From IMG/VR virus record IMGVR_UViG_3300037524_000729, positions 1 to 29,184 of that record: DNA of 29,184 nucleotides, one strand, 5' to 3'. Made by a program: the position numbers and the translations under genes. Origin of the DNA: a virus. Lineage: Duplodnaviria > Caudoviricetes. The first letter of the stretch is position 1. The number at the start of each line of letters is the position of its first letter. The notes under the pieces were generated by a model. The model did no database searches and had not been told where the DNA came from. It was given only the letters and a program-made list of their open reading frames with translations. Positions 3,141-29,184 of the stretch are shown here, piece by piece.

Positions 3141-4247
3141 TCAGAACGGAATGACTGGGACGATGGCCGGGAAGATCAGCGTGATCGCGATTCGGCGGAT
3201 GTTGGCGTCTGTGGACGACGGCGCCACAATCTCGACCAGGCTTCCCTGCGCAAGGTCTTCGGTCGTTCCGGTCGTGCTGAACGTAAACGTCCCGTCAGTG
3301 GCGACGGTGATGGAGCCGATCGACGACCCGTCAACCTTCACGTCCATCACGAAGCTCGAGGACGGGTTGACCCCAACCGCGCCAACGGAGGCGACGAAGT
3401 CGTCCGGAATCCTGAAATCGCCGGGCACCACGTAGGCAAGGAGCACCTCGCTGCTGGTGGGCGCTGCGGCTTTGTAAAGCGGGATGCGGAGGCCAGGGTC
3501 GAGCGGTGCGTAGACGATCGGGCCGAGTGCCGTCACCGTCCAGAACGCAGAGACGGAGTTGAGCCAGATGATGTCGCCCACGGCGACGCTCACCTGTTCC
3601 CAGCTCGTGCCGTTGTAATAGGCCAGGTTGCCTCGGGTCCAGCCCGACCAGGCGCCGGACGGGGAGGCGCCGCCGAGGTTGATGAGGTCCATGCGCCCGG
3701 TCGCGGGCGACCCCACGGGCGAGCCGCGCTGCGAGGTCACGTAGAACACTCGCCGCTCGCTCAGGTAGCTCGAGCCGCCCGAGGCCGGGGCGGCGACCCA
3801 CTCGTTGTTCGCGGCATCCCAGGTCAGCACGTCGCCGTCGTCGGGCTCTGGTGACGCCGGTACGTTGACGTCGGTCAGGTCGGCGAGTGCGCCGCCGCCG
3901 CTGCCGGACTGGAAGATGGCCCAGCTCAGCGGGGAATCAGACTCGCAGCGGTAGTGCTCGCCGTCGCCCTGGTTGTACACCAGCCACCCGGCCGCCGGTG
4001 TCAGGAACGTCCACCCGCCGCCGATCAGTACTGCGAGTTCCTGCGCGTGTCCGACCCACGCGCCGGTCGGGGCTGCGCCCACCAGGTAGGCATCGCCGTC
4101 GGCCGGGGAGCCCGGCGGCGTGTTGGTCTGCGAAATCACCGCCGCCTGCACCAGCGCGTCGAGCCGACGCAGCGCGGTGTTCACGGTGACATGCGGCTGC
4201 GCCTGGCTGGCGATCAGTTCGGGCAGGGACAGGTTCGGCGTGGTCAT
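3141..4247 (-). CDS. Tail fibre / receptor-binding protein with N-terminal DUF2793 domain
   Basis: TTPNLSLPELIASQAQPHVTVNTALRRLDALVQ...PTGAWVGHAQELA...GGWTFLTPAAGW is the typical GTA-like DUF2793 N-terminus. It also has a LADLTDV..DGDVLTWD linker and is the last gene of the tail module. Confidence 0.85.
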   Translation of the reverse strand: MTTPNLSLPELIASQAQPHVTVNTALRRLDALVQAAVISQTNTPPGSPADGDAYLVGAAPTGAWVGHAQELAVLIGGGWTFLTPAAGWLVYNQGDGEHYRCESDSPLSWAIFQSGSGGGALADLTDVNVPASPEPDDGDVLTWDAANNEWVAAPASGGSSYLSERRVFYVTSQRGSPVGSPATGRMDLINLGGASPSGAWSGWTRGNLAYYNGTSWEQVSVAVGDIIWLNSVSAFWTVTALGPIVYAPLDPGLRIPLYKAAAPTSSEVLLAYVVPGDFRIPDDFVASVGAVGVNPSSSFVMDVKVDGSSIGSITVATDGTFTFSTTGTTEDLAQGSLVEIVAPSSTDANIRRIAITLIFPAIVPVIPF

Positions 4248-7200
4248 ACGATGGCCTCGGCGGCATAGCCCCGGCCGACGACGGCCGAGCGCTGGTAGAT
4301 GCGAACGGTGACGGTGTCAGGCACGGGGCTCCCGAAGTCCTCGGCCTGCTGCGCCTCGGTGTATGTCACGGACGGCGTCGAGGCCGTCAGGGTGCGCAGC
4401 ACCTCGGGCGGGCTGTCGGTCGAGAGGATGTCGACCTCGTAGGACTCCGATGCCTCGCTCATCGGGATGTCGGTGTTCGCCGGCAGCTCCTGGCCGAGCC
4501 GGTCACGGCGGGTCCACGTGATCGTCAGGTCGCCCGCCTCGTCGCGTGCGCCCTCGACGTGCACCCCGGCGAAGGGCTCGAGCGCCACGCCGCGGCCCGT
4601 GAAGGCGACGGCCGTCGTGCCCTCGAGCGTGGTGCCGACGAGCACGGGCTTGTGGAGCCGCTCGGCACCAATCGCGGAGACGTTCTGCGGCACGCGGGCG
4701 ATCGTCGAGTCGAGCAGCACGAAACGGTCGCCGGCCTGGCTCAGCCCCATCGCCCATTCGGTGCCGCGCCGGCCGCGCAGCAGGCCGGTGAGCCGCCAGA
4801 TGGGAGGGCTGCCGGTCAGCTCGGCGTCGCGGAACTGGATGACCTCCCAGCGGCCGTCGGCACCGATTGCAGCGGCGTTCAGCCCGGCGAGCAGCGAGGT
4901 CTCGCTCACGGATTCGAGAGCGTCCGTCGCCAGCCCGTCGACGAACAACTCGTTGCCCTCGTCGATGACCGTCGTGGGCCCGGCTGGCAGCGGGTCCACC
5001 ACGTCGCCGATCGTCGCCTCGAGCGTGAACGTGGCAACGGAATCGTAGGTGGTGCCGCCGTCCGGCGAGCGGTACAGGACGGCGCCGCCGAAGGACGTGG
5101 AGCCGGTCGCCTGCACCGCCGCGTAGTAGCCGGCGTCGTTGTCCGCGTCCCGCAGCAGCGGCAGGTCGAGCAGCACCAGGTCGGCCGTGCCGGGCACGGA
5201 GATGTTCGAGCCCGTCGTGCCCGAGTAGGCCGCTGGTGCGCCGACCGCGTAGGACTCGTACACGCCGTCGTCATCGCGGACGAGCGCGAGACGAATGAGG
5301 CCCGGCAGGCTGTAGTCGGTATCGACGATGCGCAGCCGCTCCATCCGCCCGTCTACCGGCGCCTCGACGGCATCGGCCGGCTCGAGCGCGAGGAAGGACT
5401 GGTCGACGGTGGTCTCGTAGCGGTTGCGCGAGATCCACGCATCGTAGAGCAGCACCTCGGCCGTCTGCGCCGCGCGGTTGTCGCTCATGGCGATCGCGAG
5501 CTCGACGTCCTGCACCTGGTCGGTGCCGACGCTCAGGCGGGAGGCGCCCTGCTCGCCAGCCTCGTAGTTCATGTCCACCTGGGCGTAGTGCACGCGCAGC
5601 CGGCGCGGGAGTTCGACCTCCTGCGTGCGCGTGACCTGTATGGCCGCCGGTCGCTGGCCGCCGGCCTCGTGCGCACCAAGGTCGTCGGAGGTGAAGCTCG
5701 CGACAATCGCCTTGCCGCGCGTCGGCCACTTGAGGACGCCACCGGACTCGACGCAGTCGAACATCCCGACCGAGCGCAGCGGCGAGATCGCGTCGCGCCC
5801 GCTCATCACGCGGGTGATCGCGTAGCCGTAGACAGGCTGCGTCAGGTCCGTCGTGTCGACCACTTCGCTCGCGAGCCCGCAGCGGCGGCAGACATCGCGG
5901 ACGATCGTCCCAAGCGTGGTGATCGACGGGTCTGTCTCGTAGGCGTCGAACTCGACCGCCCAGCCGCGATCCTGAATGTTCGGGTAGCGGAGGCTCGCGT
6001 TTGAGTCCTCGTAGGTCCAGCCGGACGGCGCGTGACCGGCAGCGACTGCCTGCGCGTAGAGGTCGTCCCAGAACTCCTGCGAGTCCGCCAGCGGATCGTC
6101 GGCCGGGATCAGGTACTCGCTGCGCGGCACGCCGGCAAACCCGTACTCAAGTGGGCGACGCTGCAAGTACCAACTGAACGTCCACTCGTTCGCGGGCCAG
6201 CCCGAACCGAAATCGAAAACGCGAAGTCCGGCTAGATCGCCGCCAAGGTCGGCCCATTCAGTATCGACGTGAAGCCACCAACCCTCGAACAGGAACCACT
6301 GCAGGTCGTCCGACCAGTCTTCGGCCATGTCTGGCAGCGGAACAGGCTCCTCCCATTGCCGCGCGCAGGGCACCACCGTGTCAGTGATCGAGAGCAGCTT
6401 GTGGATCGGGTCTTGACCGGGCTCCGGTGGCGCCGGATCGTAGTGATATCCGACTATGTTCGCCGGGCTGCCGAGGATTTCGTTGGCCGCCTCATAAGCC
6501 ACCCACTGACGCACCTGTGGCGCGAATGCGTCGTACTCGTTCGGGATGACATGAACCGGAGGACCGCCATAGGACGCGTGACCACTAGGTGTATTCGAGA
6601 ACACTTTACTGACCGCGCTTCCTCCGACGCAGAACAGCAGCCCGAGCATCATCCGATTAGGCTCTGACGTGACCTGCGGCGTCGATGAAACGCTTGGATA
6701 AAACGGCCCAGGACGCTGTCCTGCTTGGGCCGGTGTAGGCAAGCCGTCAGTCCAAGCTGTCACATCGCTGGAATAGGTGACTCCGCCGTTGGCTGCTCCG
6801 CGGGCGGCAAGAACTTCTCCGAGGTTGCCGCTCCACGTGCCGAGGTTTGTGCCTGGGTTCCAAGTCGTGTTGTACAAAAGCGCTGCGCCGAACGGCCTGG
6901 GGTCGCCGCTTTCGCTGTCCCAATCCCAGTGCGGCACCCACCCGGCGCTGTACAGGCCGACGGTGACCGGGACCGATGCGCCGGCAATCTCGAAGCGGAA
7001 ATTCGGGACGCGGTTGCCGTAGTCGGCGAGCTGGAACTCGCTAAACACCACGTAGGCGAGGCCGCGGAACGCGCTGACGTTGCCGACGCCCTCGAAGGAT
7101 TCGATGGTCGGATCGGCGAGCTGATCCTCGCCGCCGAGGTAAATCTCCATCCCGTCGAGCAGCGTCGCGTTGGCCTGGACGCGGGCGTTATAGCTCTCGG

Positions 7201-7642
7201 TCGTCTCACCTTCGAGCTGCGGCCGGGCGTCATAGATCAGCTTCGCGTCGGCCCAGATGCGGCGGATTCCGCTGATCGGTCCCTCGCACAGGCCGACGGC
7301 GCAGTTGACCGAGTAGGAGTACTCGCGCACGGTCTGTGTAGGGCCGCCTTTGCCGCCTTGGCGCCGCTCAGAGACCGCCTCGATGATGCCGCTTGACCAG
7401 ATGACGTTGCCGGCGATCGCATACGTGCCGTACACGATCGGGATCGGTGCGCCGACGGTCGAGGTCTGCACCGACAGATCGTTCAGCCGCGGCCCGTTGA
7501 CCGTGCCGAGATCGGTCGGGAACAGCGCGCTGCCGGCGAGCCCGCCGAGCTGGAAGCCCCACGCCGCACCAGTTGGGCCGCCGAACACAAAGCCGATCGC
7601 GGCGCCGCCAATCGAAAGGATGGCTTGCCCGGCGTTCGACAC
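4244..7642 (-). CDS. Large tail-tip / host-specificity protein (GTA megatron/gpJ-like, 1132 aa)
   Basis: GPRLNDLSVQTST.GAPIP.VYG, GLCEGPI..IRRIWAD.KL, AFRGLAYVVF..FQLADYGNR.PNF.FE, WEVIQF..AEL and LLRGRRGTE motifs, plus synteny after NlpC/P60. Confidence 0.9.
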   Translation of the reverse strand: MSNAGQAILSIGGAAIGFVFGGPTGAAWGFQLGGLAGSALFPTDLGTVNGPRLNDLSVQTSTVGAPIPIVYGTYAIAGNVIWSSGIIEAVSERRQGGKGGPTQTVREYSYSVNCAVGLCEGPISGIRRIWADAKLIYDARPQLEGETTESYNARVQANATLLDGMEIYLGGEDQLADPTIESFEGVGNVSAFRGLAYVVFSEFQLADYGNRVPNFRFEIAGASVPVTVGLYSAGWVPHWDWDSESGDPRPFGAALLYNTTWNPGTNLGTWSGNLGEVLAARGAANGGVTYSSDVTAWTDGLPTPAQAGQRPGPFYPSVSSTPQVTSEPNRMMLGLLFCVGGSAVSKVFSNTPSGHASYGGPPVHVIPNEYDAFAPQVRQWVAYEAANEILGSPANIVGYHYDPAPPEPGQDPIHKLLSITDTVVPCARQWEEPVPLPDMAEDWSDDLQWFLFEGWWLHVDTEWADLGGDLAGLRVFDFGSGWPANEWTFSWYLQRRPLEYGFAGVPRSEYLIPADDPLADSQEFWDDLYAQAVAAGHAPSGWTYEDSNASLRYPNIQDRGWAVEFDAYETDPSITTLGTIVRDVCRRCGLASEVVDTTDLTQPVYGYAITRVMSGRDAISPLRSVGMFDCVESGGVLKWPTRGKAIVASFTSDDLGAHEAGGQRPAAIQVTRTQEVELPRRLRVHYAQVDMNYEAGEQGASRLSVGTDQVQDVELAIAMSDNRAAQTAEVLLYDAWISRNRYETTVDQSFLALEPADAVEAPVDGRMERLRIVDTDYSLPGLIRLALVRDDDGVYESYAVGAPAAYSGTTGSNISVPGTADLVLLDLPLLRDADNDAGYYAAVQATGSTSFGGAVLYRSPDGGTTYDSVATFTLEATIGDVVDPLPAGPTTVIDEGNELFVDGLATDALESVSETSLLAGLNAAAIGADGRWEVIQFRDAELTGSPPIWRLTGLLRGRRGTEWAMGLSQAGDRFVLLDSTIARVPQNVSAIGAERLHKPVLVGTTLEGTTAVAFTGRGVALEPFAGVHVEGARDEAGDLTITWTRRDRLGQELPANTDIPMSEASESYEVDILSTDSPPEVLRTLTASTPSVTYTEAQQAEDFGSPVPDTVTVRIYQRSAVVGRGYAAEAIV

Positions 7643-7643
7643 G

Positions 7644-8048
7644 TCAGTACTCCACGCCCGGCAGCGCCCAGACGCTGTGCGTCATCCGCACCCAGCGCCC
7701 GCGGTAGCCGTGCTCGATGACGCGCCCCACGCGCTCGTAGGCGTGGATCATCGTCTCGCCGGCGCAGATGGCGACGTGAGCCGCGAGCCGGGTCCATGCG
7801 ATGACGATCAGCGACCCGGGCAGAGCACGCTCGAGCGGGCGGCACACGCCCTGCACGCGAGCGATCAGCTCACCCGTGGGCAGCCGGCCATAGTTCGCCA
7901 CGTCGAACTCCGGCCCGATCAGCCCGAGCGAGCGGCCGACGACGATCGGCAGGCCCACGCAGTCGATGCCGTGCCCGTCCCGGCCCTGGTGGCGGAACGG
8001 CACGTTGAGCCACTGACGGGCTTCGAGGATCACGCGCTCAGGGCTCAT
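7644..8048 (-). CDS. NlpC/P60 family tail-associated peptidase
   Basis: ARQWLNVPFRHQGR..GIDCVGL (catalytic Cys) and AHVAI...MIHAY (His). Confidence 0.92.
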   Translation of the reverse strand: MSPERVILEARQWLNVPFRHQGRDGHGIDCVGLPIVVGRSLGLIGPEFDVANYGRLPTGELIARVQGVCRPLERALPGSLIVIAWTRLAAHVAICAGETMIHAYERVGRVIEHGYRGRWVRMTHSVWALPGVEY

Positions 8049-8997
8049 TCCAGTTTCCCGGTATGGTCCTCGGGTACGCGAGGAACGACTCGGCGCGCGG
8101 CTTCTTGTCCGCCGTCTGGCCGCCGAAGGCCGCCAGCTCGCCGACGCCCGGCACCCACGCGCCGTGCCCGCGGAAGTTCACGAGGTTGTTGAATCGGCCC
8201 TTGCACATCGCCGCCGACTTGTCGCAGCCGGGGCGGATCGTGAAGGTGTCGCCGACCTCGACGTCGGCCGGCATCGGCAGGTAAAGCAGCACCTCGGCCG
8301 GCGAGCCATAGGCGTCGCTCTTCACCTCCATGCTGAATCCGTCGTTCGCGCCCGCGGTCCAGGTCACGAGCCCGCCGTTGAAGTCGCCGGGGTCGGGCGT
8401 CCCGCTGATGGTCGCGGAGAACTGTCGGCTGCTCGTGACGGCGGTCACGGTGCCGGTCTCGGTGAGCGTCGCCACGTTCACACCGCAGCGCGTGTCGCCA
8501 AGCTCCGCGTCGCAGCTCGATCCGTAGGTGCGGACGATCTTCTGCGTGAGCCGCTGGGCCAAGCCACGCAGCTCGGTTCGATACTGGCCCTCGGCGGTGC
8601 GGACGATCTCGCCCAGGTTGCCGGTGCGCAGGACGATCTGGCCGTCATCGGGTGCCTGCCAGTTGACGAGGAACAGCACGACCGAGGCGTCGTCAAGGAG
8701 CCCGGCCTCGATGTCCGCGGCCGAGAGGTCCACCAGCTGCAGGTCGCCGGCGTTGACCGCGCCCGATACCTCCATGTTGTCGACGCTCATGTCCGAGGTC
8801 GACCGCACGCTGCTGCCGGTGATCCCGGCCCGCGCGAGGTAGGTGCCGGCGTAGTCGCCTGTCGTGATCGTCAGGTCGCGGTCGTGCTCGGTCCCGAGGA
8901 TCAGCACGGCGTCGCTGCGCTCGACGCGCCAGCACACGGCCAACGTCGTCACGTCGCCGGCGAGGTGCGATTGCAGGGCGGGCGGGATCGTTCGCAT
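8038..8997 (-). CDS. Baseplate hub / tail-tip protein, DUF2163 (BR0599 family)
   Basis: Start re-called at ATG 8997 (MRTIPPALQSHL..VTTLAVCW). Cys motifs CDAELGDTRCGV and PGCDKSAAMCKGRFNNLVNFRG. Confidence 0.92.
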   Translation of the reverse strand: MRTIPPALQSHLAGDVTTLAVCWRVERSDAVLILGTEHDRDLTITTGDYAGTYLARAGITGSSVRSTSDMSVDNMEVSGAVNAGDLQLVDLSAADIEAGLLDDASVVLFLVNWQAPDDGQIVLRTGNLGEIVRTAEGQYRTELRGLAQRLTQKIVRTYGSSCDAELGDTRCGVNVATLTETGTVTAVTSSRQFSATISGTPDPGDFNGGLVTWTAGANDGFSMEVKSDAYGSPAEVLLYLPMPADVEVGDTFTIRPGCDKSAAMCKGRFNNLVNFRGHGAWVPGVGELAAFGGQTADKKPRAESFLAYPRTIPGNWNEP

Positions 8998-9506
8998 CAG
9001 GTGGCTCGAATGCAGGTTGCAGCCCAGGCATCCGGACGTGTCGGAATCGGCGTCCACTCGCCGAAGCGCCTGAGTTGGTCCTGCCAGAACTCGGCGCTCC
9101 TAACCATCCGGTGAGCCGGCGTACCGTCCGGCAATCGACGGCGGCCAGTCACGAGCGATACGTTCACGAGCAGCGCCTTCGTTGCCAGCTGGTCGAGGTG
9201 ATCCAGCACGGCCGACAGGCACTCGGGCTCGATATGCTCGAGAACGTCCGCGCAGACCACCAGGTCAGCCGCCGCGGGCTCCGCGTCCTTACCTGGGATT
9301 GCCGGGTCGTATTCCGCCACAGCGACGCCCGGAAGTGAGCGAGCGAGCGATCCCTTGCCGCAACCGTAGTCGAGCACCGAGACAGATCCTGAGCGGTCCA
9401 TCAGGATGCGTACCTGTTCGGCCCAGCGCGATCCGTTGCTGCCGTAATCCGGCATCGCCCGGTGTGCCCGGAGGTTCAGGTCGCGATACGCGTCGGTGAT
9501 TCTCAT
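8997..9506 (-). CDS. Class I SAM-dependent methyltransferase (169 aa)
   Basis: Start re-called at ATG 9506 (ATGA overlap with the upstream stop). Motif I VLDYGCGKG, then YDPAIP and DLVVCADVLEHIEPE. Confidence 0.88.
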   Translation of the reverse strand: MRITDAYRDLNLRAHRAMPDYGSNGSRWAEQVRILMDRSGSVSVLDYGCGKGSLARSLPGVAVAEYDPAIPGKDAEPAAADLVVCADVLEHIEPECLSAVLDHLDQLATKALLVNVSLVTGRRRLPDGTPAHRMVRSAEFWQDQLRRFGEWTPIPTRPDAWAATCIRAT

Positions 9507-10213
9507 TGCCAGTGCCTGCGTATCCATTCGATGCGACCTGCCAGCTCCCAAGCTTTCGGGTGGCCGTTGAAGTGCACGATCCGCGCATCCGGAGGAAGCG
9601 TCCGGTAGCCGCTCGCGCGCATGTCCTGCGACTGGTAGATGCCCACTGATCTCGGCCATGCCGGCGCGGACGCTGCGAGCTTGTAGCTGATCCAGGCTTG
9701 ATCGCTGCCACGGAAGCCAGCGGCCCGCGCGGCCTTGATGCCGTCTTCGCCGAAGTCGTCCCAGACCTCTGGGTGCGTCCCGGTGCGCAGTAGCCACGTG
9801 CCGCCGCCGAAGCGGCGTTCGGTGCCCCACGCGTAGTTGGGCCGCCAGCCGACGAAGTCTGCGTCGATCTCGAGCAGCGGCGACAGGTCCCTCGGGATCA
9901 CGCAGTCGATGTCGAGCAGCAGTACGCGATCCGCGATCTCGGTCGCCTCCCGCGAGAACAGCCACAGGCGCCGGTAACTCGACGGGAACTGCGCACCCTC
10001 CGGCGTCGCCATCCGTGCGGCGGCGTGCGCGGCACCCGGCAGCGGGAGCGCTCGAACGTCGGCCGAAAACTCCGACTGGTCGGTAAAACACACGAACTCG
10101 TGCGGCACCGGCAGGTGACGACGGACCATGCTCGCCAGCACGTCCACGTGCTTCGGTCGATAGTCCCGGCTCCCGTCGCACCACAGGAAGCAGACGACCG
10201 CCAGCGAACTCAA
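9503..10213 (-). CDS. GT-A fold glycosyltransferase (GT8-like)
   Basis: FVCFTD, DxD motif in VLLLDIDCVI, GSDQAWI, and IVHFNGHPKAW (HF.G..KPW-type motif). Confidence 0.8.
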   Translation of the reverse strand: MSSLAVVCFLWCDGSRDYRPKHVDVLASMVRRHLPVPHEFVCFTDQSEFSADVRALPLPGAAHAAARMATPEGAQFPSSYRRLWLFSREATEIADRVLLLDIDCVIPRDLSPLLEIDADFVGWRPNYAWGTERRFGGGTWLLRTGTHPEVWDDFGEDGIKAARAAGFRGSDQAWISYKLAASAPAWPRSVGIYQSQDMRASGYRTLPPDARIVHFNGHPKAWELAGRIEWIRRHWQ

Positions 10214-10833
10214 GGCGTCGCCAGTGCCGACGCGAGGTCGGCCTTCGGGAAGCAGGCGAGCCGCGACACCGAGCTCGTGTTGACGACGGAAAGCCCCAGC
10301 CGCTTGCAGTCGCGAGCGATGACGGCGAAGTTCTTGAGCAGCCAGTCGTACGGCGTGGGTCTCGCGATCTCTTTCGGGTGGCTGCCAAAGAAATGATCCA
10401 TCCCGCCGACTGCTCCCATGTCATACCCGACGAGCACGAAGCGACGCGCACCCATGTGCATCGCGAGGTTCATCGCCTGCACACCTGAATTCGCGTTGAA
10501 GTAGATCAGCCGCGGGTCTTCGGACAGACCGGCGGCGTGCTCCCCCGCGATCCGGTGCAGGCCGAACTGCCGGGCTGCGGCTTCGCACTGAGTCCAGCAC
10601 TCGCCAGAGAATCCGCGCTGGATCTCGGCCCAGTGGTAGCGCCACCACGGGAAATCGCACGCATAGAGCAGGTGTGCCCACGGCGCGAGCCGCCAAGCAT
10701 CGTTGATGGCGATGCACGGCCAGCCGCCATCCCTCACCAAGGGGAGGTCTGCGGATGCAGCGCTCGGGCCGGTTGCTACCAGGACGACGGTGCGCGCGCT
10801 GTCCCGGAACGGGAGATCACACCCGCTCTTCAT
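10210..10833 (-). CDS. Maf/DUF115-like (sialyltransferase-like fold) nucleotide-sugar transferase
   Basis: VLVATGPSA, CIAINDAW, LYACD..WW and NSGVQAMNLA..MGARRFVLVGYDM..HFF motifs. The start is probably ATG 10833, overlapping the DUF2460 end (ORF track start is 10869). Confidence 0.7.
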   Translation of the reverse strand: MKSGCDLPFRDSARTVVLVATGPSAASADLPLVRDGGWPCIAINDAWRLAPWAHLLYACDFPWWRYHWAEIQRGFSGECWTQCEAAARQFGLHRIAGEHAAGLSEDPRLIYFNANSGVQAMNLAMHMGARRFVLVGYDMGAVGGMDHFFGSHPKEIARPTPYDWLLKNFAVIARDCKRLGLSVVNTSSVSRLACFPKADLASALATP

Positions 10834-11449
10834 TGAGCGTGAACGGTACGCGCTGGACCCGCATCGCATCGTCGCCGCGGAACGTCAGCACGAACTCCGT
10901 ACCGTCCGCGAAGGTCACGGGCACGTCGAACTCCCCGCCCCACGTCAACGGCCCAACCGGGACGAACAGCAGGCTGACGAGCCCGGTCGTGTAGTCCACG
11001 GTGTAGTCGGTTCCGGCTTCCTTCAGGACGCCGTTATCGGCCACGAGGATGGTGCCGCTCACCGGCTTCTGGATCGGTCGCGTGCGGGTCAGGGCGCCCT
11101 TGGTGTACTGCTTGACCATCTGATAGGCCGCCGGGCTGCCGGGCACGAGCTGCAGCGGCTGGTCGGTTGCCGCAGCGGTCTCGAACGGCGCGCAGCTCTT
11201 GTAGTCGTTCCAGTCCTTGAACCGAAACGCATACGCCCCGCCACCGACGGCGTGCCAGAACTCCAGCACCTCGTAGATGTCGGCCTCGGCATGCTCGATC
11301 TCGCAGTCGAACGAGTGCAGTGGCGCCGTCCAGTTGAGGTTGCGCCGGGTCTGTCCGCCGGCCCGCTGAATTCTCGTCACGCTGATCTGCGGACGAACCC
11401 GGTATCCCAGCGACGGCGGAAGCGGGAAGCGCGGCGTTTCCAGGAACAT
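10817..11449 (-). CDS. Distal tail protein, DUF2460 (TIGR02217-like)
   Basis: MFLETPRFP, RN..W..PL, FRFKDWNDYKS, R.IQKPV.G and GGEFDVPVTF. It lies directly after the tape measure gene. Confidence 0.92.
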   Translation of the reverse strand: MFLETPRFPLPPSLGYRVRPQISVTRIQRAGGQTRRNLNWTAPLHSFDCEIEHAEADIYEVLEFWHAVGGGAYAFRFKDWNDYKSCAPFETAAATDQPLQLVPGSPAAYQMVKQYTKGALTRTRPIQKPVSGTILVADNGVLKEAGTDYTVDYTTGLVSLLFVPVGPLTWGGEFDVPVTFADGTEFVLTFRGDDAMRVQRVPFTLNEERV

Positions 11450-13845: not shown

Positions 13846-13846
13846 G

Positions 13847-14173
13847 CTACTTCAGCAGGTCCGGCATGGAGGGTGGCGGTTGTGCATTTTTCTGGTGAGG
13901 TCGCAGGGATGCCCAGGCGAGCAGCGCCGTGCGGTAGTCGCGCGCAGCCTGCTCACGGGTGCGCTCGAGACACGTCAGCAACATCTCGCGCAGCGGCCAT
14001 TCGAGGACGGCGAGAATCCGGCCGTAGTCGTGCCCGGCAGCCCGGCGAATCACGCCGTCCCATTGGCCGAGGTCTAGTGCGCCGACTGCGCGATCGGCTG
14101 GCTTCGCTTGCCGGCCCCGCTCGAAGAGATGAGGGAACTCGCCAGCGAGCGCAGCTGCCGCCCGAAAAAACCC
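13847..14173 (-). CDS. -1 frameshift extension of tail chaperone (gpGT-like)
   Basis: The -1 frame is open from the slippery site G GGT TTT TTC to the stop at 13847, just before the tape measure ATG. Confidence 0.7.
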   Translation of the reverse strand, partial: GFFRAAAALAGEFPHLFERGRQAKPADRAVGALDLGQWDGVIRRAAGHDYGRILAVLEWPLREMLLTCLERTREQAARDYRTALLAWASLRPHQKNAQPPPSMPDLLK

Positions 14174-14517
14174 AGCACGAAGTCGAGCCCGAGGCGATAG
14201 ACCTCCTGGACATCCACTTCGGTGTCCAGCCCCTCGATCCAGTTCGCGGTCTCCTGGGCCATCTCCGGCGTCCAGTCCGCCTCGCCCTTGCCCATCGGCA
14301 GCAGGAAGCAGCCGAGCAACTCGCAGGCCCGGCCCGAGCGCATGACGGCGGTATGCAGCCTCAGCAGATACGCCTGCGGCTCCTCCTGGGCGGCCGGCAG
14401 GATGCGGTCGAGCCCTGTGTCGCCGACCAGGCGGTCGACGTGCAGCTGCCAGCGGACCGTCCGGCGCTCGAGGTTGAGGGCGGCGAACTGCCGCCCTCCG
14501 AGCGTGACGTTGCTCAT
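14074..14517 (-). CDS. Tail assembly chaperone (gpG-like)
   Basis: Start re-called at ATG 14517 (MSNVTLGGRQF), overlapping the major tail stop. It lies between the major tail and tape measure genes and contains a slippery site. Confidence 0.75.
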   Translation of the reverse strand: MSNVTLGGRQFAALNLERRTVRWQLHVDRLVGDTGLDRILPAAQEEPQAYLLRLHTAVMRSGRACELLGCFLLPMGKGEADWTPEMAQETANWIEGLDTEVDVQEVYRLGLDFVLGFFGRQLRSLASSLISSSGAGKRSQPIAQSAH

Positions 14518-15257
14518 CACTCGACGATCTGGGCGACGAAGTACTGGCTGACCGTCGTGCCGTTCTTCGTGGTGTCCTTGAGCAGCTTGCCCTTGACCTC
14601 GAGCTCGCCATACTCCTCGGACAGCAGCGCCAGGGCCGCCGCCGGGCCGAACTTGACGCGGTGCGCGGTGATCTTCACGGTCTTGCCGCTGCGCGCCTCG
14701 TTCAGGCCGTCGAACACGAACTCGTACTCCTGCGCAGCCGCGACCAGCGCCTCGACCTTGTCGCCGGCCTTCGGCGTGTAGTCGACGACGATGGAGCTGG
14801 CATCCACGATCGTCGAGGTCTCCGGAATCTCCAGGCCGCCGCCGCGCACGATGTAATCGGAACCCGCTGTGTACAGCGTCGCCGGCGAGCCAGCCGCATT
14901 CACGGTCACGGTCGCGGCGGTGTCGATCGGGTACAGCGTGCTGACGAACCCACCGCGATATGCGGTGTGAGCCTCGTTCGTGACGGGCGTCGCAGCGATT
15001 GCGCTCGCCGCACCGTAGGCCGCCATGGCCAGGTTCTCGGGCGAGAAGTCGGTCATCTTGATCGTCGCCTCGACGGAGTTGATCCGGCGGACCTCGTTGT
15101 AGGTGCCGCCGCCGGGCTGGGTGCGGTCCTTGAGTTCCTTGTTGTCCTCGGTCACGTTGAACGAGAGGTCCGTGACGTTGCCGACGAAACGCAGCCCCGC
15201 CGCCGCGCCTGCCACGCGGACGTAGACCTTGCCGCTGCCCAGATAGCTGTAGTCCAT
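14517..15257 (-). CDS. Major tail (tube) protein
   Basis: YSYLGSGKVY...FVGNV..LSF...FSPENLAMA...FDGLNEA..GK motif pattern. AGGAG RBS upstream. Confidence 0.88.
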   Translation of the reverse strand: MDYSYLGSGKVYVRVAGAAAGLRFVGNVTDLSFNVTEDNKELKDRTQPGGGTYNEVRRINSVEATIKMTDFSPENLAMAAYGAASAIAATPVTNEAHTAYRGGFVSTLYPIDTAATVTVNAAGSPATLYTAGSDYIVRGGGLEIPETSTIVDASSIVVDYTPKAGDKVEALVAAAQEYEFVFDGLNEARSGKTVKITAHRVKFGPAAALALLSEEYGELEVKGKLLKDTTKNGTTVSQYFVAQIVE

Positions 15258-15326
15258 GATCGTCTTCTCCTGAAGGGGTTGAACCGCTCACGCGCGGCAA
15301 GGCGCCCGGTCATCCCGGGGAGAGTG

Positions 15327-16059: not shown

Positions 16060-16060
16060 G

Positions 16061-16429: not shown

Positions 16430-16444
16430 TTCTCGTACTCCGAA

Positions 16445-16490: not shown

Positions 16491-16511
16491 CAGCTGGGTG
16501 GGTGGATGGGA

Positions 16512-20128: not shown

Positions 20129-20373
20129 CGTCGGCTCCTGAAGTCTGCGACGCTCATCCCCGCCCGGCCCATTCCGGCCGCGCGGCGCTCCATCTGGCTC
20201 ACCATCCGAATCCAGTAGTCGAGGGCCGCCTGCATGTCCTGCGCGGACTTGTAGGTGATCGTCCGGCCCTTGTAGCTCACCGACTGGAACGTGCCGGTGC
20301 TCTGGGCTGCCATGAGCGCCGCGACCATGTCGCGCGCCTGCTGAAGGGTAATTGCGCTCATCGTCTGAACCAT
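20125..20373 (-). CDS. Head-tail adaptor, gpW-like (start possibly 20361)
   Basis: Small ORF between terminase and portal with a QSVSYKGRTITYKS beta-hairpin. Confidence 0.75.
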   Translation of the reverse strand: MVQTMSAITLQQARDMVAALMAAQSTGTFQSVSYKGRTITYKSAQDMQAALDYWIRMVSQMERRAAGMGRAGMSVADFRSRR

Positions 20374-23650: not shown

Positions 23651-23652
23651 CG

Positions 23653-24477
23653 CTATCGGGCCGTCCTGATCGCGGTCCGCAGCGCCTTCTTGAACTCGCC
23701 GGGCCACACGCGAGCTTGCGTCTTGCGAGCGACGTCGACGAACCCGTACCGCCGCCGATAGTTCGGTGCCGCTGCGAAGATCAGCACGGGCTTCACGCCT
23801 CGGGGCTGGATACGGTTGGCCTTGACGGTTACGTCGAAGCCCGCTGCCCTTGCCTCGCTCGTCGCGCGCTTGGCGATGGCGCGCTGTCTGGTTGAGGTCG
23901 TTGGGCCCGTGCGCTCGTAGACGCCGGGAGGCAGGGACTGCCCTGCGCGCGTGGCGAAGTACTTGGGTCGCTTCGCCCCTGCCCGATCGGCGGACCGTGC
24001 GGTCTGGTTCGCCTTGAAGCCGACCTCGGAGAACGCCTGCGTCTGGGACAGGATCTGAACGATCTGCCCGGCGCTGATGTTCCCGTACTGGTTGAGCCGA
24101 GCGCCTGCGCCAGGCATGGCGAACTCTGACGGGCCCATGATGCCGCGAGCACGTAGAGCACGCTCGAATCGCTTCACCCTGCGGCCGCCACCCTCGACCT
24201 CGGGCTCGAGGTACTTCACTGGCGGCGTGCCCTTGGTCGCCTCGTTGCGCAGGAACACCTCTGCCTCGATCTCGCCTCGCTTGGCGAAGCGCACCATGGG
24301 GGCGTTCACTGTGAATGCAGTGGGCCTGTCGAACGCGAACCGCGCCTCGATCTTCAGGGCCGTCTGGATCTTCTTGGCCGTCTCGTTGACCGCCAGCCGA
24401 GTGGCATACGGGATCTGCTCGGCGTGCTTCTGCATCTTGCGCGCCAGCATGGCGGTATCGAACGTCACGGCGATCAT
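23653..24477 (-). CDS. Basic virion morphogenesis protein (gpZ-like tail completion/neck)
   Basis: Start re-called at ATG 24477. QIPYATRLAVNETA...FDRPTAFT...YL.PEVEGG.R..KRFE.AL...LNQYGNI..GQI.QILSQ pattern. Confidence 0.65.
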   Translation of the reverse strand: MIAVTFDTAMLARKMQKHAEQIPYATRLAVNETAKKIQTALKIEARFAFDRPTAFTVNAPMVRFAKRGEIEAEVFLRNEATKGTPPVKYLEPEVEGGGRRVKRFERALRARGIMGPSEFAMPGAGARLNQYGNISAGQIVQILSQTQAFSEVGFKANQTARSADRAGAKRPKYFATRAGQSLPPGVYERTGPTTSTRQRAIAKRATSEARAAGFDVTVKANRIQPRGVKPVLIFAAAPNYRRRYGFVDVARKTQARVWPGEFKKALRTAIRTAR

Positions 24478-24977
24478 CAGACGATCGTCACCTTGAGCCT
24501 GCACTCGTAGATCGAACCTGCCTGCGTCTCGATCACGGCGACGCAGTTGTACGTCTCGCCGAGGGTTCCGCCTGAGGCCCACACACGGACCTCCTGCAGG
24601 GCTGGCAGATCCTGCTCCACCTCATCCGCGAGGACGAGATCACGGTCGGTGATCCACTCGACAGGGTTGGCGGATGCAAGGCGCTCGGAGAGGCTGTCGT
24701 ACGTGATCGCCTGGGCAGTCCACGTGATCGATCCGTCAACGACTGTCTCACCGACGACACCCGGCCAATCCGGCTCGGTCTTGCCATGGGACACTCCGCC
24801 GCTCGAAACGTACTCGAGGCCGGTGCCCGGCCTGCGCCACGGCCGCACGATCTGTCCGACGTCGTACGGATGATTCGGTTCCCAGCGGCGGGCGAACTCA
24901 TCCGTCAGGTCGAACGCATACCACTGGCGCTCTGATGCCGCCTTGCAGACCTCGAGCGTTTGGACGCACTCGGCCAC
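24477..24977 (-). CDS. Putative virion accessory protein with internal CBM5/12-like module
   Basis: K...E...YAFD and VRVWASGG..GETY...C.IET flank WEPNHPYDVGQIV...EPDWP...GETVVDGSITW. Confidence 0.55.
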   Translation of the reverse strand: MAECVQTLEVCKAASERQWYAFDLTDEFARRWEPNHPYDVGQIVRPWRRPGTGLEYVSSGGVSHGKTEPDWPGVVGETVVDGSITWTAQAITYDSLSERLASANPVEWITDRDLVLADEVEQDLPALQEVRVWASGGTLGETYNCVAVIETQAGSIYECRLKVTIV

Positions 24978-24981
24978 GGCC

Positions 24982-25179
24982 TTACTCGGTCGCGATCAGG
25001 CCGAGGCTCTTCAGTCGCTCGACGATGTCGGGCGGCAGGGTGCGGCTCTTGCCGCTGACCTCGACCACGATGCCGTGTTCGGTCTGCGTCGCCGCATACT
25101 CGCCTGCGAGCAGCTTGACTGCGCCACCCTGCGCGCGGGGCAGGCCCTGCTCGAACGTCTGCAATACCTTGAGCTTCAT
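24982..25179 (-). CDS. Small hypothetical protein (65 aa)
   Basis: ATG at 25179 with GAGG RBS. It fills the operon gap (MKLKVLQTFEQG...GLIATE). Confidence 0.6.
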   Translation of the reverse strand: MKLKVLQTFEQGLPRAQGGAVKLLAGEYAATQTEHGIVVEVSGKSRTLPPDIVERLKSLGLIATE

Positions 25180-25186
25180 GGTGTCC

Positions 25187-25750
25187 TCAGGCCGCGGCGG
25201 CCGTGCCAGTGAAAACGACCTCGAGCGAGTCGCCGTCGTCGAGCGACTTGTTGCCCGCGGTGAACGCGCCAGCGGCGTACAGGGTGCCGGTCGTGCCGCC
25301 CTTGGTGTTGTTCGAAGTGAGGAACGCGCCGCCGACGTCGGTGCTGTCCGTGCTGATTGTGAAGTCGGCCGGCGATCCGGAGTTCGACACGGACTGGCTC
25401 GACACGCCGCCATCGGTCCAGGCCGGGCGGTTCGCCTCGTCGTAGGCGGTGACCTCGCTCCAGCCGGCGTGCGAGGACATGGTGTTCCCGGCGGCGACCG
25501 TCGGGGTTGCCGACGTGAGGCCGAGATACCACGACGTGATGGGCGTGCCACCCGACAGCCCTGCGTCGAGCAGGTAGTCGAGGCCGGCGTTGACGACGAT
25601 GTTGTCGATCGTGTCGCGCCACTTCTCGACGCCATTGGCGTCGCGACAGATGAACTCCCAGCGGCCCTTCATGGCGGCCTGCAGGAGCGTGTCGGCCGGG
25701 CGGCGCGCAGCGCCTTCTGCCTGGCCACCCAATGTGCCGATGTTGTCCAT
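25187..25750 (-). CDS. Putative virion structural (fibre/decoration) protein, 187 aa
   Basis: Gly/Thr/Ser-rich beta protein: NIVVNAGLDYLL, WYLGL, WSEVTAY..RPAW, GTLY, GDSLEV. Good RBS. Confidence 0.65.
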   Translation of the reverse strand: MDNIGTLGGQAEGAARRPADTLLQAAMKGRWEFICRDANGVEKWRDTIDNIVVNAGLDYLLDAGLSGGTPITSWYLGLTSATPTVAAGNTMSSHAGWSEVTAYDEANRPAWTDGGVSSQSVSNSGSPADFTISTDSTDVGGAFLTSNNTKGGTTGTLYAAGAFTAGNKSLDDGDSLEVVFTGTAAAA

Positions 25751-25759
25751 CTTCGATCC

Positions 25760-27694
25760 TCAGTGCGTACGGGTTGAACGGGTCCTGGGTTCCAGGTCGA
25801 GCGTCCGCAGACGCTGTTCGATCTCGACGTCGCGGGTGCGGACGGCGAGGCGAAGTTCGTGCAGTCGTGCCTCGAGCAGCAGGTAGCGCTCGCGCGGCGT
25901 GAGCCGGAGCGACCTGTTGGCGGGCGGCAGGCTCGCGCGCGTCGGCTCGATGCCGATGAATGCTGCGCCGAGCAGGACGCCTGCGGAGACCTCCGCCACC
26001 GTGGCGGCGATCGCCACGAGGGTCGCCTGCAGGTCAGTGGCGGCCGACAGGGCCGCGTAGGCCACGCCGACCGCGTCCGTGCTGCTGCTGGCAGCCAGGG
26101 CGCCACTCGTCGCGCCTGCCGTCGCTGCGGCGGCCTGTACGGTCACCGCGGCGGATACGCCGGCGACGACCGCGAAGCCGGCGAGCTCGGTCGCGGTGAA
26201 GTTGGCGCCAGCCGAGGCACCTGCGCCCACGACCCCGTAGGCCCGCGCCAGGGCGGCGAACAGGGCCGGCAGGGACGAGCCGCCAGCAAAGCTGCCGTCG
26301 CCGATGGCCGTGGCCGTGGCAATGGCGCCGAGACTCACGGCACCGCTCGCCGTGGCCGATGTCACTGCCTGGGCGAGCCACGTCGCCGAGGCCTGCACTT
26401 CTGCCGCGGTGGCGAGCACGCCGCCAGTCGTCACTATGAACTGCGCGGCGGCCTCTGCGGCGGCCCCTACGTTGCCGAAGGTGTCAGCCCGGCCCGCGAG
26501 GGTTGCGCCGGCCTGCGCGGCGGCGCTCGAGGCGACCGCGAGCAGTGCGGCGACGTCCGCCACGCTGCCGAGCGTGATGTTTCCGCCGACGGCGCCACGG
26601 GTGGCGGCCAGTGCGCTCAGGGCTGCGCTCGGCACGAGTCCGGCCGTGAACGCAGCAGCCGATGCGCTGCGTCCGTCCAGTGTTGCGCCGGCCGACGCCT
26701 GCGCGCCGACGAGCCCGTAGGCCGTGGCCTGTCCGAGGACGGTGGCGGCGGCGTTGACCGCCTGCACCACTGCGGCCTCGGCGGCGACCAGGGCCGCGAA
26801 GATGGCGTCGAGCTGGCCCGGCGCCGAGACCTGGGCGATGGCAGCGGCGAGGGCTGCGAACGTCGCGCCGGCCTCTGTGCCTGCCGTCACGCTGCCCGTG
26901 TTCAGGTCGGTCGGCGAGAATCCGCCCACGAGGCCGAGCCACGGGAATGGCGCAGGCTCATCAACCGTTGGCGTCGTATCCGCCGCAGCGAAGCTCGCGC
27001 CGAGCCCGATGGCTGCGGCGATCTGTCCTTGTGCGCTGGCGACGGCCGTCAGGGCGGCGGACAACTCCACCTGCCCGCTGGCCGATGCATAGGTCGCGGC
27101 GCCCGCGAGGAACTGCGCGGCCGCGTCGGTGCCTGCCGTCACGACGGTCAGGGCCTGCGCGACCACGGCGTCGAACTGCGCGCCCGTATCGGCGGCAGCG
27201 GCCATCTGCGCGGCCGCAGCGGCAGCGATGGCCCATGACTCGCCTGCCGCGATACCTGCCGCGACCGCCGAGCGCATCACGTTGATGCCAGCGATCGTCT
27301 CGGCGAGCTGGGCCTGCGCGGCAATGGCGGCCGTCGTGGCCGACAGCCCAGAGTCGGACTGGCCCGCGCCGGTGCCTGCTACCACCGTGCCGCGGGCGAC
27401 GGCCCGGGCGGCAAACGTGCTGCCGAGTCCACCCGCGGCGCTCAGCGTTCCGCGTCCGACCGCGACCGCCGCAATCGTGGCGCCGAGGCTCGACCCCGCC
27501 GTCAGGCTGACCGTCTCTGGCGGCGTGGCGGTGGGCGAGAATCCGGCGATCAGGCTCAGCCAGGGCAGCGGCGCCGGCTCGTCGATGCCAGTGGCTAGCG
27601 CGTCGAGGAACTGCTCGCCGAACCAGCCGTCCGCCTGCGTCGTCTCATCGAACCAGCCCGACGCGACGGCTGTGGCGTCGAACCAGCCGAGCAT
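25760..27694 (-). CDS. Ala-rich repetitive protein (644 aa), putative fibre/decoration
   Basis: Long ORF in operon orientation with ~20-aa periodic Ala/Gly repeats, a duplicated 18-aa motif and a charged C-terminus. Confidence 0.7.
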   Translation of the reverse strand: MLGWFDATAVASGWFDETTQADGWFGEQFLDALATGIDEPAPLPWLSLIAGFSPTATPPETVSLTAGSSLGATIAAVAVGRGTLSAAGGLGSTFAARAVARGTVVAGTGAGQSDSGLSATTAAIAAQAQLAETIAGINVMRSAVAAGIAAGESWAIAAAAAAQMAAAADTGAQFDAVVAQALTVVTAGTDAAAQFLAGAATYASASGQVELSAALTAVASAQGQIAAAIGLGASFAAADTTPTVDEPAPFPWLGLVGGFSPTDLNTGSVTAGTEAGATFAALAAAIAQVSAPGQLDAIFAALVAAEAAVVQAVNAAATVLGQATAYGLVGAQASAGATLDGRSASAAAFTAGLVPSAALSALAATRGAVGGNITLGSVADVAALLAVASSAAAQAGATLAGRADTFGNVGAAAEAAAQFIVTTGGVLATAAEVQASATWLAQAVTSATASGAVSLGAIATATAIGDGSFAGGSSLPALFAALARAYGVVGAGASAGANFTATELAGFAVVAGVSAAVTVQAAAATAGATSGALAASSSTDAVGVAYAALSAATDLQATLVAIAATVAEVSAGVLLGAAFIGIEPTRASLPPANRSLRLTPRERYLLLEARLHELRLAVRTRDVEIEQRLRTLDLEPRTRSTRTH

Positions 27695-27703
27695 GGGCTA
27701 ACC

Positions 27704-28552
27704 TCAGGTGATCTGCTGATAGTTCACGAAGCTGCCGGCCTTCGCGACGATGGCGCTTGATGCGACCTCGGAGGCGAAGCGCGCCACCAGCGTGCCGTTG
27801 GCGCTCGGCTGGATCACGCCGGTGATATTCGCCCAGTTGTTGCCTGTCGCGGCGCTCGTGGCGTTGGACGATGCTGGCGCGTCATAAGCCTGCAACATCG
27901 CATTGCGCGTCGAGGTCGTCGTCGTGAGCGAATACTCGGAGCGATAGTCGAGGTACGTCGGGCTGCTCGGCCCATTGATCGACCAGCGCGAGCCCGTCGT
28001 GGTGGCCGCAGCGGTGTACACGATGTGGAAGTCGAAGTAGTACAGCGACCCTGCGACCACCGAGAATGACAGGCCGGTGACGTCCGCGATGGTGTTCGCG
28101 GTGCCGTTGTTGTTCGTCTGGTCGCTCGCGAGCACGACGGTCGTGAGCCCGGAGCCCGTGGCGGCACCGACGTTGCCGTAGTTCGCGACCTTGGCGCGAC
28201 CGTATATGTCGGTCTGCCAGAAGCCCGCACCCTCGACGTACATCAGCGACTCGCCAGCCGCGAGCACGCACTGGATGATCTCCATCGCGTTCGTGCCATC
28301 GGTGTGCACGAGCGTGATGGTGTTCGAGGTCGAGGCGTGGCGGTTGCGGACCGTCAATGTCTTGACGGTGCGATACACGCCCGAGCCCGGCGAGGCGACC
28401 ACGGTCGTCGTCGTGGCCGTCGAGATCGTCGTATTGGTCCGCCCCGGCACGATGGACGAGATGCCGTCCACGTACGACGCGTGCACGTCGATGTTCGCAG
28501 TGCTGCTCGTGATGACGCGGATCAGGTCAGATGTGGATGCAAGTAGCAGCAT
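27704..28552 (-). CDS. Thr/Ser-rich putative virion protein (282 aa)
   Basis: Two beta-rich domains. The second (DVTGLSFSV.AG..Y.F...GTLVARFASE) resembles C-terminal fibre/spike domains. Confidence 0.65.
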   Translation of the reverse strand: MLLLASTSDLIRVITSSTANIDVHASYVDGISSIVPGRTNTTISTATTTTVVASPGSGVYRTVKTLTVRNRHASTSNTITLVHTDGTNAMEIIQCVLAAGESLMYVEGAGFWQTDIYGRAKVANYGNVGAATGSGLTTVVLASDQTNNNGTANTIADVTGLSFSVVAGSLYYFDFHIVYTAAATTTGSRWSINGPSSPTYLDYRSEYSLTTTTSTRNAMLQAYDAPASSNATSAATGNNWANITGVIQPSANGTLVARFASEVASSAIVAKAGSFVNYQQIT

Positions 28553-28572
28553 GATTCACTCGTGACCGTTGC

Positions 28573-29184
28573 TCACCCGCAGCCGCGCAGCAGCAGGCCG
28601 AGGGACTTCGAGGGGGCGGATGCCACTGCAATCTCTTTGATCTCGAATGCCAGCAGCCCGGTCCTAGCATAACGACCTTGATCGACAGATACCGAATTGT
28701 CCTCGGCTCCGATCCAACCGCACTGCATGGAAAAGTTGCTATTCGCATGGGCAGAGGCGGTCGAGTAGCCACCCTCAAATGTCCGCGTCAGGTTGCTGTT
28801 GTAACCGCCCGACACGGCGAACGTCATGTTCGTTGCGCTGGAGAATGCACCAGGGGTCGCAACCGTCGGAGACAAGTCGTATCCGTCGGTAATGTCCCAG
28901 GCACCAAAGGCGTCGGCCGGGGCGCCGGAGTTGTCGACGTCTCCGGTGAGTTCGAAAACTTCGGCCTCTTTTCGCCACGCGTATCCTGTCGAGATCGTGA
29001 CGCTGCCCGACGACGGTGAGCCGCCGACGATACACGCGAAGACGCGGGTGTATTGCGTGGCGGATAAGGACCACTGCGCTGCGATCACCTCCGTCCAGGT
29101 GCCGTGCCCACTCAGCGAAATGGCGCTGGCGGCATCTCGTACCTGGATCGTCGCCATCAGCACCGCCCCGGCGGCCGGCGTGAA
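28573..29184 (-). CDS. Ser/Gly-rich putative virion protein, 5' end truncated by window edge
   Basis: The frame stays open beyond the ORF-track start (FTPAAGAVLMATIQ...) to the window end and ends in ...SLGLLLRGCG. Confidence 0.6.
   Translation of the reverse strand, partial: FTPAAGAVLMATIQVRDAASAISLSGHGTWTEVIAAQWSLSATQYTRVFACIVGGSPSSGSVTISTGYAWRKEAEVFELTGDVDNSGAPADAFGAWDITDGYDLSPTVATPGAFSSATNMTFAVSGGYNSNLTRTFEGGYSTASAHANSNFSMQCGWIGAEDNSVSVDQGRYARTGLLAFEIKEIAVASAPSKSLGLLLRGCG

Follow-up and report, generated by a model that had tools for sequence, protein, structure and literature searches.

Ser-Pro Motifs in Virion Proteins and a Maf-Like Enzyme Encoded beside Them: a Candidate Phage O-Glycosylation Tag

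Motif sites and enzyme cassette in the window

The window analyzed here is the whole 29,184-nucleotide (nt) virus record IMGVR_UViG_3300037524_000729 (Caudoviricetes), and the subject is a peptide motif, Gly-Ser-Pro (GSP), that recurs in its tail proteins beside a cassette of three enzyme genes, gt2, gt1, and a methyltransferase gene. Judged by profile and family matches, the gene content fits a temperate siphophage, with an integrase, lysis genes, a tape measure, and a major tail gene. The head and packaging genes encode a ClpP-capsid protein, a lambda-type portal, and terminases. The tail tip is of the gene transfer agent (GTA) type and comprises a DUF2793 fiber, a tip protein, NlpC/P60, DUF2163, and DUF2460. 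The three enzyme genes sit between those for DUF2460 and DUF2163, and each overlaps its neighbors; no promoter-like site was found in 8000-12000. The enzyme genes and x-Ser-Pro sites are as follows (glycosyltransferase, GT; amino acids, aa; open reading frame, ORF; S-adenosylmethionine, SAM).

10210..10833, minus strand: gt2, a 207-aa stand-alone transferase of predicted Maf/CstII fold, PmgO family; candidate initiating enzyme
9503..10213, minus strand: gt1, a GT8-like (glycogenin/GAT1-like) GT with DxD at 101-103; candidate extending enzyme
8997..9506, minus strand: class I SAM methyltransferase (PF13489, E 4.2e-7); candidate glycan-capping enzyme
14883..14891, minus strand: GSP(A), major tail protein (14517-15257), Ser124, turn between two predicted strands of an inserted domain
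11132..11140, minus strand: GSP(A), distal tail protein DUF2460 (10817-11449), Ser105; x-Ser-Pro in close relatives
8299..8307, minus strand: GSP(A), hub protein DUF2163 (8038-8997); relatives have up to three sites in different loops
6464..6472, minus strand: GSP(A), variable middle region of the tail-tip protein (4244-7642)
4805..4813, minus strand: GSP(P), tail tip, short insertion by alignment
4409..4417, minus strand: DSP(P), tail tip, insertion by alignment; some relatives have GSP
4325..4333, minus strand: GSP(V), tail-tip C-terminus (DFGSP), on a widespread DFG background
4104..4112, minus strand: PPGSPA, DUF2793 fiber (3141-4247), partly a family feature
3930..3938, minus strand: DSP(L), fiber, insertion by alignment; relatives have GSP
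3702..3725, minus strand: tandem GSPVGSPA, fiber
25370..25378, minus strand: GSP(A), 187-aa protein (25187-25750) of the uncharacterized phage family phrog_8123
29014..29022, minus strand: GSP(S), last ORF (28573 to the contig end), uncharacterized phage family

A preliminary description, made from the letters of the window, had reported 11 GSP, including seven GSPA, in seven minus-strand ORFs, and all of them were found where it had placed them. It had guessed that fewer than one GSPA would arise by chance, and the computed expectation is 0.34 in the 33 curated genes (9,623 aa). When k-mers were counted against a shuffled background, as it had advised, GSPA was the top 4-mer (7 vs 0.34 expected; Poisson P of 8.5e-8), and any 4-mer as extreme appeared in one of 500 per-protein shuffles. 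GSP alone occurred 11 times against 2.66 expected (P of 1e-4) and ranked third among 3-mers; since the top-ranked 3-mer was equalled in 27 of 500 shuffles, the GSP count is not significant by itself. Conservation at the protein level was borne out by the Ser codons at the window motif, which are TCC, TCG, TCA, and AGC. Because they are split between TCN and AGY, a DNA-level repeat was ruled out.

The claim that the motif is confined to tail and fiber proteins held up less well. GSP is absent from the other 26 window proteins, but this absence is not significant (1.52 expected; P of 0.22), and the DSP and ASP variants occur also in the integrase, ClpP-capsid, and terminase. Of the seven proteins called virion proteins, the 187-aa protein and the last ORF match phage-only families, so that their virion role is putative; the Atlas clusters of the 187-aa protein are viral, and one has Gp80 in 14% of its members. 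Taken alone, the window makes a modest case, and the strength of the argument derives from its relatives.

Distribution of the motif in related and unrelated phages

Scans with DUF2460, gt2, and DUF2163 yielded 189 loci, including two phage genomes. For a quick IQ-TREE tree, merged lineages were retained if their DUF2163 measured 250-420 aa and their tail-tip module covered 1,200 aa or more; 67 qualified, and the others were dropped. In the resulting DUF2163 tree, the GSP-rich lineages formed one clade of eight (SH-aLRT of 96). The tip module of this core clade contained 61 GSP against 9.6 expected, compared with 30 against 17.2 in other GT-bearing lineages and 26 against 26.3 in lineages in which no GT was seen, a label that is uncertain for fragments, as just 3 of 43 whole-searched records were at least 90% complete. 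With L066 and L067 not counted as gt2-bearing, the three tallies stood at 50/7.2, 25/14.7, and 27/24.2.

Alignment with homologues, which the preliminary description had recommended, showed that most comparable window sites are loop insertions or lineage-specific changes. Short insertions or changes carrying the motif were found in three separate DUF2163 loops, of which the window uses one, in two tail-tip loops, and in one fiber loop. In DUF2460, Ser-Pro is kept while the preceding residue varies (G, A, E, D, N, Q, or S), and x-Ser-Pro is absent from distant relatives and from RcGTA; in a 96%-identical DUF2163, SSPA replaces GSPA. Because of this varied preceding residue and the SSPA replacement, Ser-Pro is taken as the invariant core of the motif, with Gly preferred before it. 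Both Ser codon groups are used at the motif (58 TCN and 38 AGY). At the major-tail site, Ser-Pro was present in the 10 closest homologues and in 14 of 97 (those shorter than 260 aa among 120 listed). The proposed surface-loop location was considered on a predicted structure: in an AlphaFold2 (AF2) model of the three-site DUF2163 of L062, of low confidence (predicted local distance difference test [pLDDT] of 62), two Ser lie in coil between strands and the third in coil flanked by a strand and a short helix, and the loop position suggests that these sites are exposed.

Within the GSP-rich clade, the partner enzymes vary (GT8, GT2, GT-D, GT9-like, FkbM, and radical SAM). Three unrelated gt2 types occur there, and gt2 is the only gene common to these lineages as far as coverage permits. 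The three-gene cassette, which the preliminary description had treated as a unit, did not survive as such, as the partners differ among GSP-rich relatives and gt2 is often alone; it is the Maf-like gt2 alone that tracks the motif.

Several relatives deserve separate mention. In L006, L009-L016, and L047, 4-kb cassettes between DUF2460 and DUF2163 encode two paralogues of a ~265-aa protein with a weak DUF6716 match, one of them with GSP, together with GT9-like, FkbM, radical SAM/SPASM, and GT8-like proteins. The sister lineages L017 and L048 have DSP instead of GSP in DUF2163, head closure, major tail, and fiber. In L002, the major tail, tape measure, DUF2460, and cassette are 95-100% identical to those of the window, but the head modules differ (window 16512-18578 vs L002:2522-5311); GSP occurs in a decoration protein of the L002 head module, whereas the head proteins of the window lack it.

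Unrelated phages were reached by a scan with a gt2 alignment. The best 80 of 590 confirmed matches were used, of which 79 were new, mostly with HK97-type head modules. Counts were non-redundant, and the GT2 family was excluded from the enzyme counts for its DDGSP, which we take to be a catalytic motif. In these gt2-chosen loci, the pooled outer proteins contained 77 GSP against 10.2 expected, whereas the inner proteins (portal, terminase, protease, and neck) contained 2 against 10.5 and the enzymes 3 against 9.6. Among the outer proteins, GSP counts were 29 vs 5.9 expected in the capsid, 20 vs 1.8 in the long adaptor, 8 vs 0.1 in the short adaptor, 7 vs 0.6 in head closure, 6 vs 0.8 in the terminator, and 7 vs 1.0 in the major tail; among the inner ones, they were 1 vs 5.3 in the portal, 1 vs 2.9 in the terminase, 0 vs 1.6 in the protease, and 0 vs 0.7 in the neck. 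The enrichment lay in Ser-Pro (272 vs 145 expected) and not in Thr-Pro (167 vs 163). At least one GSP was present in 42 of the 74 gt2-chosen loci with outer proteins. At six capsid sites, the motif lies in an alignment column without gaps (GSPDY vs GTSDY) and may be structural. That non-target proteins avoid GSP (5 vs 20.1 in these loci) is not claimed, because the inner proteins of loci without a GT are also low and too few (0 vs 0.9).

In the adaptors, the motif is typically a six-residue insertion. As controls, 30 adaptors were taken from 251 sampled alphaproteobacterial genomes; one had an adjoining gt2, and none of the 30 had the insertion. GSP was present in 16 of 35 gt2-chosen adaptors compared with 1 of 29 gt2-negative controls (Fisher P of 1.2e-4, kinship ignored).

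A second scan, in which loci were chosen by capsid, was intended as a gt2-negative control and returned a set of 80 nearly all gt2-positive loci. In this aquatic HK97-type lineage, gt2 was found in 77 of 80 loci, and the remaining three end near the capsid gene. GSP was present in 53 of 55 adaptors. Each of the 80 capsids had a Ser-Pro, which in most of them is inserted when compared with HK97 gp5. Among the 48 loci spanning capsid to major tail, gt2 was the sole GT recognized by profiles in 38. In the loci L276-L352, one gt2 gene follows that for the capsid, and Ser-Pro sites are found in the capsid, adaptor, and major tail proteins; this is the system in its simplest form.

Among cultured phages, D3 (NC_002484.2, L191; region 4459-20879) has a capsid gene followed by the gt2 homologue orf7, a gene of GT-B type, and one for a methyltransferase, and each of five virion proteins has one GSP, including capsid Ser310 and major tail Ser22. 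The capsid GSPQ corresponds to GGPQ in HK022, and the major-tail motif lies in a loop insertion where HK022 has a short turn; the terminator GSP is common to HK022, which has no GT match. Of 80 D3-type capsid loci, the 67 with gt2 all had Ser-Pro at the site (65 GSP and 2 SSP). The 11 more distant loci, at 64-73% identity, lacked gt2 and all had Gln/Lys-Pro there, six of them with at least 6.7 kb downstream. The other two had GSP and no gt2 match, one being cut inside the capsid gene and the other 1 kb beyond it. This association probably reflects one gain. The major tails of D3-type gt2 loci had GSP in 39 of 64 cases, most of the others having SGSGP.

Overall, the motif follows gt2 across phages that differ widely in G+C and in the type of head or tail. 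The expected co-occurrence with transferase genes was seen across unrelated phage groups, with GSP at background level where no such gene was seen.

The gt2 family and a possible mechanism

gt2 belongs to phrog_4603, together with PmgO/PmgP of P1, HdmB/C of P7, and orf7 of D3, all uncharacterized; of these phages, P1 lacks the motif in its virion proteins and D3 has it. By tblastn, gt2 is ~31% identical to P1 PmgO, P7 HdmB, and D3 orf7 over 94-97% of its length, and ~1,400 IMG/VR stretches match the family motif. In P1, pmgO is non-essential, according to the accessible part of PMC10695390. For the AF2 model of gt2 (pLDDT of 93), the best fold match by two methods was the catalytic domain of Magnetospirillum Maf (PDB 5MU5, residues 271-513; Z of 15.8, root mean square deviation of 2.6 A, 173 residues aligned; Foldseek E of 1.4e-4), followed by CstI (Z of 11.0) and archaeal HPPK, a pyrophosphokinase (Z of 10.8). 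The GxGPS and SG...GxD motifs of GT42/WaaZ are also found in gt2 (profile E of 6.6e-4), so that CstII/CstI and WaaZ share motifs and fold with it, although as a weaker structural match than Maf. GT42 sialyltransferases and WaaZ modify lipooligosaccharide, not protein. The curated WaaZ model did not match the window gt2 and matched 1 of 71 homologues, at E of 0.0069.

Among 32 family sequences, S116 and D138 are invariant and D60 is nearly so. The intervals in D60-S116-D138 are 56 and 22 residues, compared with 62 and 23 in Maf, and, compared by spacing only, these residues would fit the essential acid-Ser-acid trio of Maf (Mm E324/D415; Cb D272/S334/D357, as given in the accessible part of bioRxiv 10.1101/2020.06.03.131540). 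gt2 is Maf-like, but it falls outside the Mafs on domains, Pfam cut-off, and substrate. Its 207 aa align in full to residues 271-513 of a chain of 632 residues, with the flanking N- and C-terminal Maf domains absent; its PF01973 score is below the curated cut-off (17 vs 34.6 bits), a family matched at E up to 0.01 by 49 of 71 gt2 homologues; and no flagellin family was found among the 27 window proteins scanned, the gt2 gene lying inside a phage tail operon. The second enzyme, gt1, matched PDB profiles at E of 2.6e-6, with similarity to glycogenin, GAT1, and LgtC, and remained under the PF01501 curated cut-off (22.1 vs 24.3 bits; E of 1.2e-4). Its D101 and D103 are invariant in 23 sequences.

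According to the accessible parts of two papers, Mafs transfer nonulosonic acids, and Kdo in Escherichia coli BL21, to Ser/Thr in surface loops (PMC11339370; bioRxiv 10.1101/2020.06.03.131540). A similar reaction is proposed here: as in Maf, where an acidic sugar (including Kdo) is transferred in the cytoplasm from its cytidine monophosphate (CMP) form onto surface loops of a polymer-forming protein, gt2 would act in the cytoplasm, late in infection, and attach an acidic sugar to Ser of outward-facing virion proteins. The donor may be a host CMP-sugar, most simply CMP-Kdo, because the window has no sugar-synthesis gene and Mafs accept Kdo in E. coli. The GT8-like gt1 would then extend the first sugar and the methyltransferase would cap the glycan, roles that would explain the exchange of partner genes among relatives that retain the tag. 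With tags gained or lost via small loop insertions, each phage could set which parts of its particle are coated, namely, the tail in the window phage and the capsid and neck in other lineages. As to the benefit, particle shielding or an altered surface charge and adsorption can be guessed.

gt2 would thus differ from Maf in being a phage-encoded 207-aa protein instead of a 632-aa solved chain with flanking domains, and in its acceptors, which would be many unrelated virion proteins sharing a short tag, while Maf has no sequon mentioned in the sources consulted in part. Bacterial oligosaccharyltransferases (OTases) work in the periplasm by en bloc transfer from a lipid carrier, and none of the PglB/PglL type was found in the window. 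As proposed for gt2, a short peptide signal directs them (D/E-x-N-x-S/T for PglB and WPAAASAP for PglL, in the accessible part of PMC11339370). Phage-encoded GTs modify capsid and tail tube proteins in the mycobacteriophages Che8, Corndog, and Myrna; predicted GT genes are likewise present in the window, but these systems have other hosts, and no sequence tag is mentioned in the accessible part of the source (PMC12363180).

Taking these observations together, x-Ser-Pro is probably an O-glycosylation tag read by the Maf-like gt2. A wider proposal, which we offer tentatively and with some doubt, is that the widespread PmgO/D3 orf7 family is a one-domain sequon-reading protein O-glycosyltransferase that puts Kdo or a related acidic sugar onto any loop x-Ser-Pro, and that tailed phages infecting Gram-negative bacteria set the pattern of their glycan coat through 3-6-residue loop insertions in capsid, neck, or tail proteins, with interchangeable partners building the outer glycan. 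Virion glycosylation is already known as a kind, shown so far for a few mycobacteriophages; in the literature searched, with subscription papers mostly outside its scope, neither a tag-directed Maf-like version nor an acceptor tag for any phage was found described. If true, the proposal would give a function to the long-unexplained P1, P7, and D3 gene family, extend virion glycosylation to many phages of Gram-negative bacteria, and make glycosites predictable from sequence. It would also provide glyco-engineering with a 207-aa cytoplasmic enzyme and a three-residue tag, Mafs having no defined sequon. A test case is at hand in the cultured phage D3, for which deposited maps cover virions, empty heads, and Prohead 1/2 produced in E. 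coli (PDB 9OSB, 9OTH, 9OUS, 9OUZ), including a 2.7 A virion map according to the accessible text (PMC12749128).

Counterevidence, alternatives, and further observations

Several results weigh against this interpretation. Some phages carry the enzyme and little or none of the motif: P1 has a gt2 homologue and no GSP (Ser-Pro 14 vs 18 expected in 19 proteins), CcrColossus has 1 GSP in 6,457 aa, TvV-S20 has none, phiNP has one, Psp6 has none in capsid, major tail, or tip, and L019 and L020 have none. No convincing 3- or 4-mer emerged as an alternative sequon in CcrColossus, TvV-S20, or phiNP. No GSP was found in the covered outer proteins of 32 of the 74 gt2-chosen loci, mostly fragments. Conversely, SSPA occupies the corresponding major-tail turn of JBD30, a phage without a GT match, ~24 of 97 major-tail homologues (counted by eye) have Gly-Thr-Pro at the site, and Gly-Thr-Pro is two-fold up in gt2-chosen outer proteins (24 vs 11.4); control outer proteins are also mildly above expectation (7 vs 3.9 and 6 vs 3.1). 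Two window sites lie on backgrounds found outside the core clade. The tip DFGSP is present in all nine core tail tips, in 2 of 22 from other GT-bearing lineages, and in 1 of 27 from those with no GT seen; for a fiber motif like PPGSP, the corresponding counts are 6 of 7, 8 of 16, and 4 of 27 fibers. In a 157-row FastTree tree, the gt2 genes of GSP-bearing loci were not united in a single clade, and gt2 types that are nearly identical occur in GSP-rich and GSP-poor phages (L055 vs L089). The positive sets represent few lineages, which are not independent; the D3 and aquatic sets are one lineage each, and the adaptor controls come from other hosts. On the enzyme side, gt2 lacks the other domains of Maf, its fold is common to CstII, WaaZ, and pyrophosphokinases, and no sequon is given for known Mafs in the accessible part of PMC11339370. 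Glycosylation is not mentioned in the main text of the D3 cryo-electron microscopy paper, which was searched by term (PMC12749128).

Two broader formulations were rejected: that any GT cassette implies GSP, as several GT-bearing phages lack motif enrichment, and that GSP marks one gt2 subfamily, which was not seen in the 157-row tree. The preliminary description had read GSP as an acceptor tag for the phage's own transferases. Loop insertions, transferase co-occurrence, and the Maf-like fold speak for that reading, and the enzyme without motif and SSPA without enzyme speak against it.

Other explanations were considered. Gly-Ser-Pro could be a favored tight turn in beta-rich outer proteins, fixed by descent, while the transferases act elsewhere, e.g., on host lipopolysaccharide (WaaZ-like Kdo transfer and receptor masking). 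The occurrence of Gly-Thr-Pro and SSPA in the same major-tail turn of other phages, one without any GT, would be expected from this, as would the two window sites on a family background, the gt2-bearing P1 without the motif, the small number of lineages, and the one of 71 gt2 sequences that touches WaaZ (E 0.007). However, the same families stand at expectation in no-GT loci, the motif is often newly inserted where homologues need none, and Thr-Pro does not share the enrichment of Ser-Pro; moreover, the enzyme genes overlap tail genes, with no promoter-like site in the region searched. We consider this explanation unlikely.

It is likewise improbable, in our view, that the motif is a modification tag read by another enzyme, such as a transferase or kinase of the host cytoplasm or one that the phage encodes outside the contigs, or that it receives a non-sugar group, with gt2 extending the modification or acting elsewhere. 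In its favor, the GSP-rich clade shows exchange of gt2 types, from which the density of the motif cannot be predicted, many loci have two gt2 paralogues, CstII-type relatives act on glycans and not on protein, the pyrophosphokinases share the fold, and the window is a 29-kb fragment. Against it stand the 38 of 48 loci of the large aquatic lineage in which gt2 is the sole recognized GT between capsid and major tail, the way the motif follows gt2 across differing G+C and head or tail type, and the closest fold, that of a protein O-glycosyltransferase. A docking role, in which the loops would bind an accessory protein of the virion or the host and their residues would stay unmodified, seems very improbable. 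Short exposed motifs do recur on many outer proteins, and the PAJU2 gt2 homologue is annotated as "structural protein" in one record, so that gt2 itself might dock; yet the putative catalytic residues are invariant in gt2, and it is easier to imagine one enzyme than one binding partner serving the loops of capsid, neck, tube, and tip alike.

Two gt2 paralogues from different clades occur per locus in L201, L202, L204, L206, L210, L211, L219, L220, L240, and L253. They resemble P1 pmgO/pmgP and are perhaps initiating and extending enzymes.

Other features of the window concern its origin and gene order. Its closest prophage match, at 51%, is in a Steroidobacteraceae metagenome-assembled genome, and the sequencing runs with at least half of 8000-12000 are of wetland, sludge, and wastewater DNA, with no usable RNA run found. 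Upstream of the terminases lies a five-gene block (24477-29184) of possibly accessory virion proteins. One of these, 644 aa long and rich in Ala, contains a duplicated segment, EPAP.PWL.L..GFSPT, and weakly matches Gp77/head-decoration. At 13847-14520, a tail-assembly-chaperone gene is followed by a second frame and then by the tape measure gene, an order that we take to be the usual layout for a programmed frameshift.

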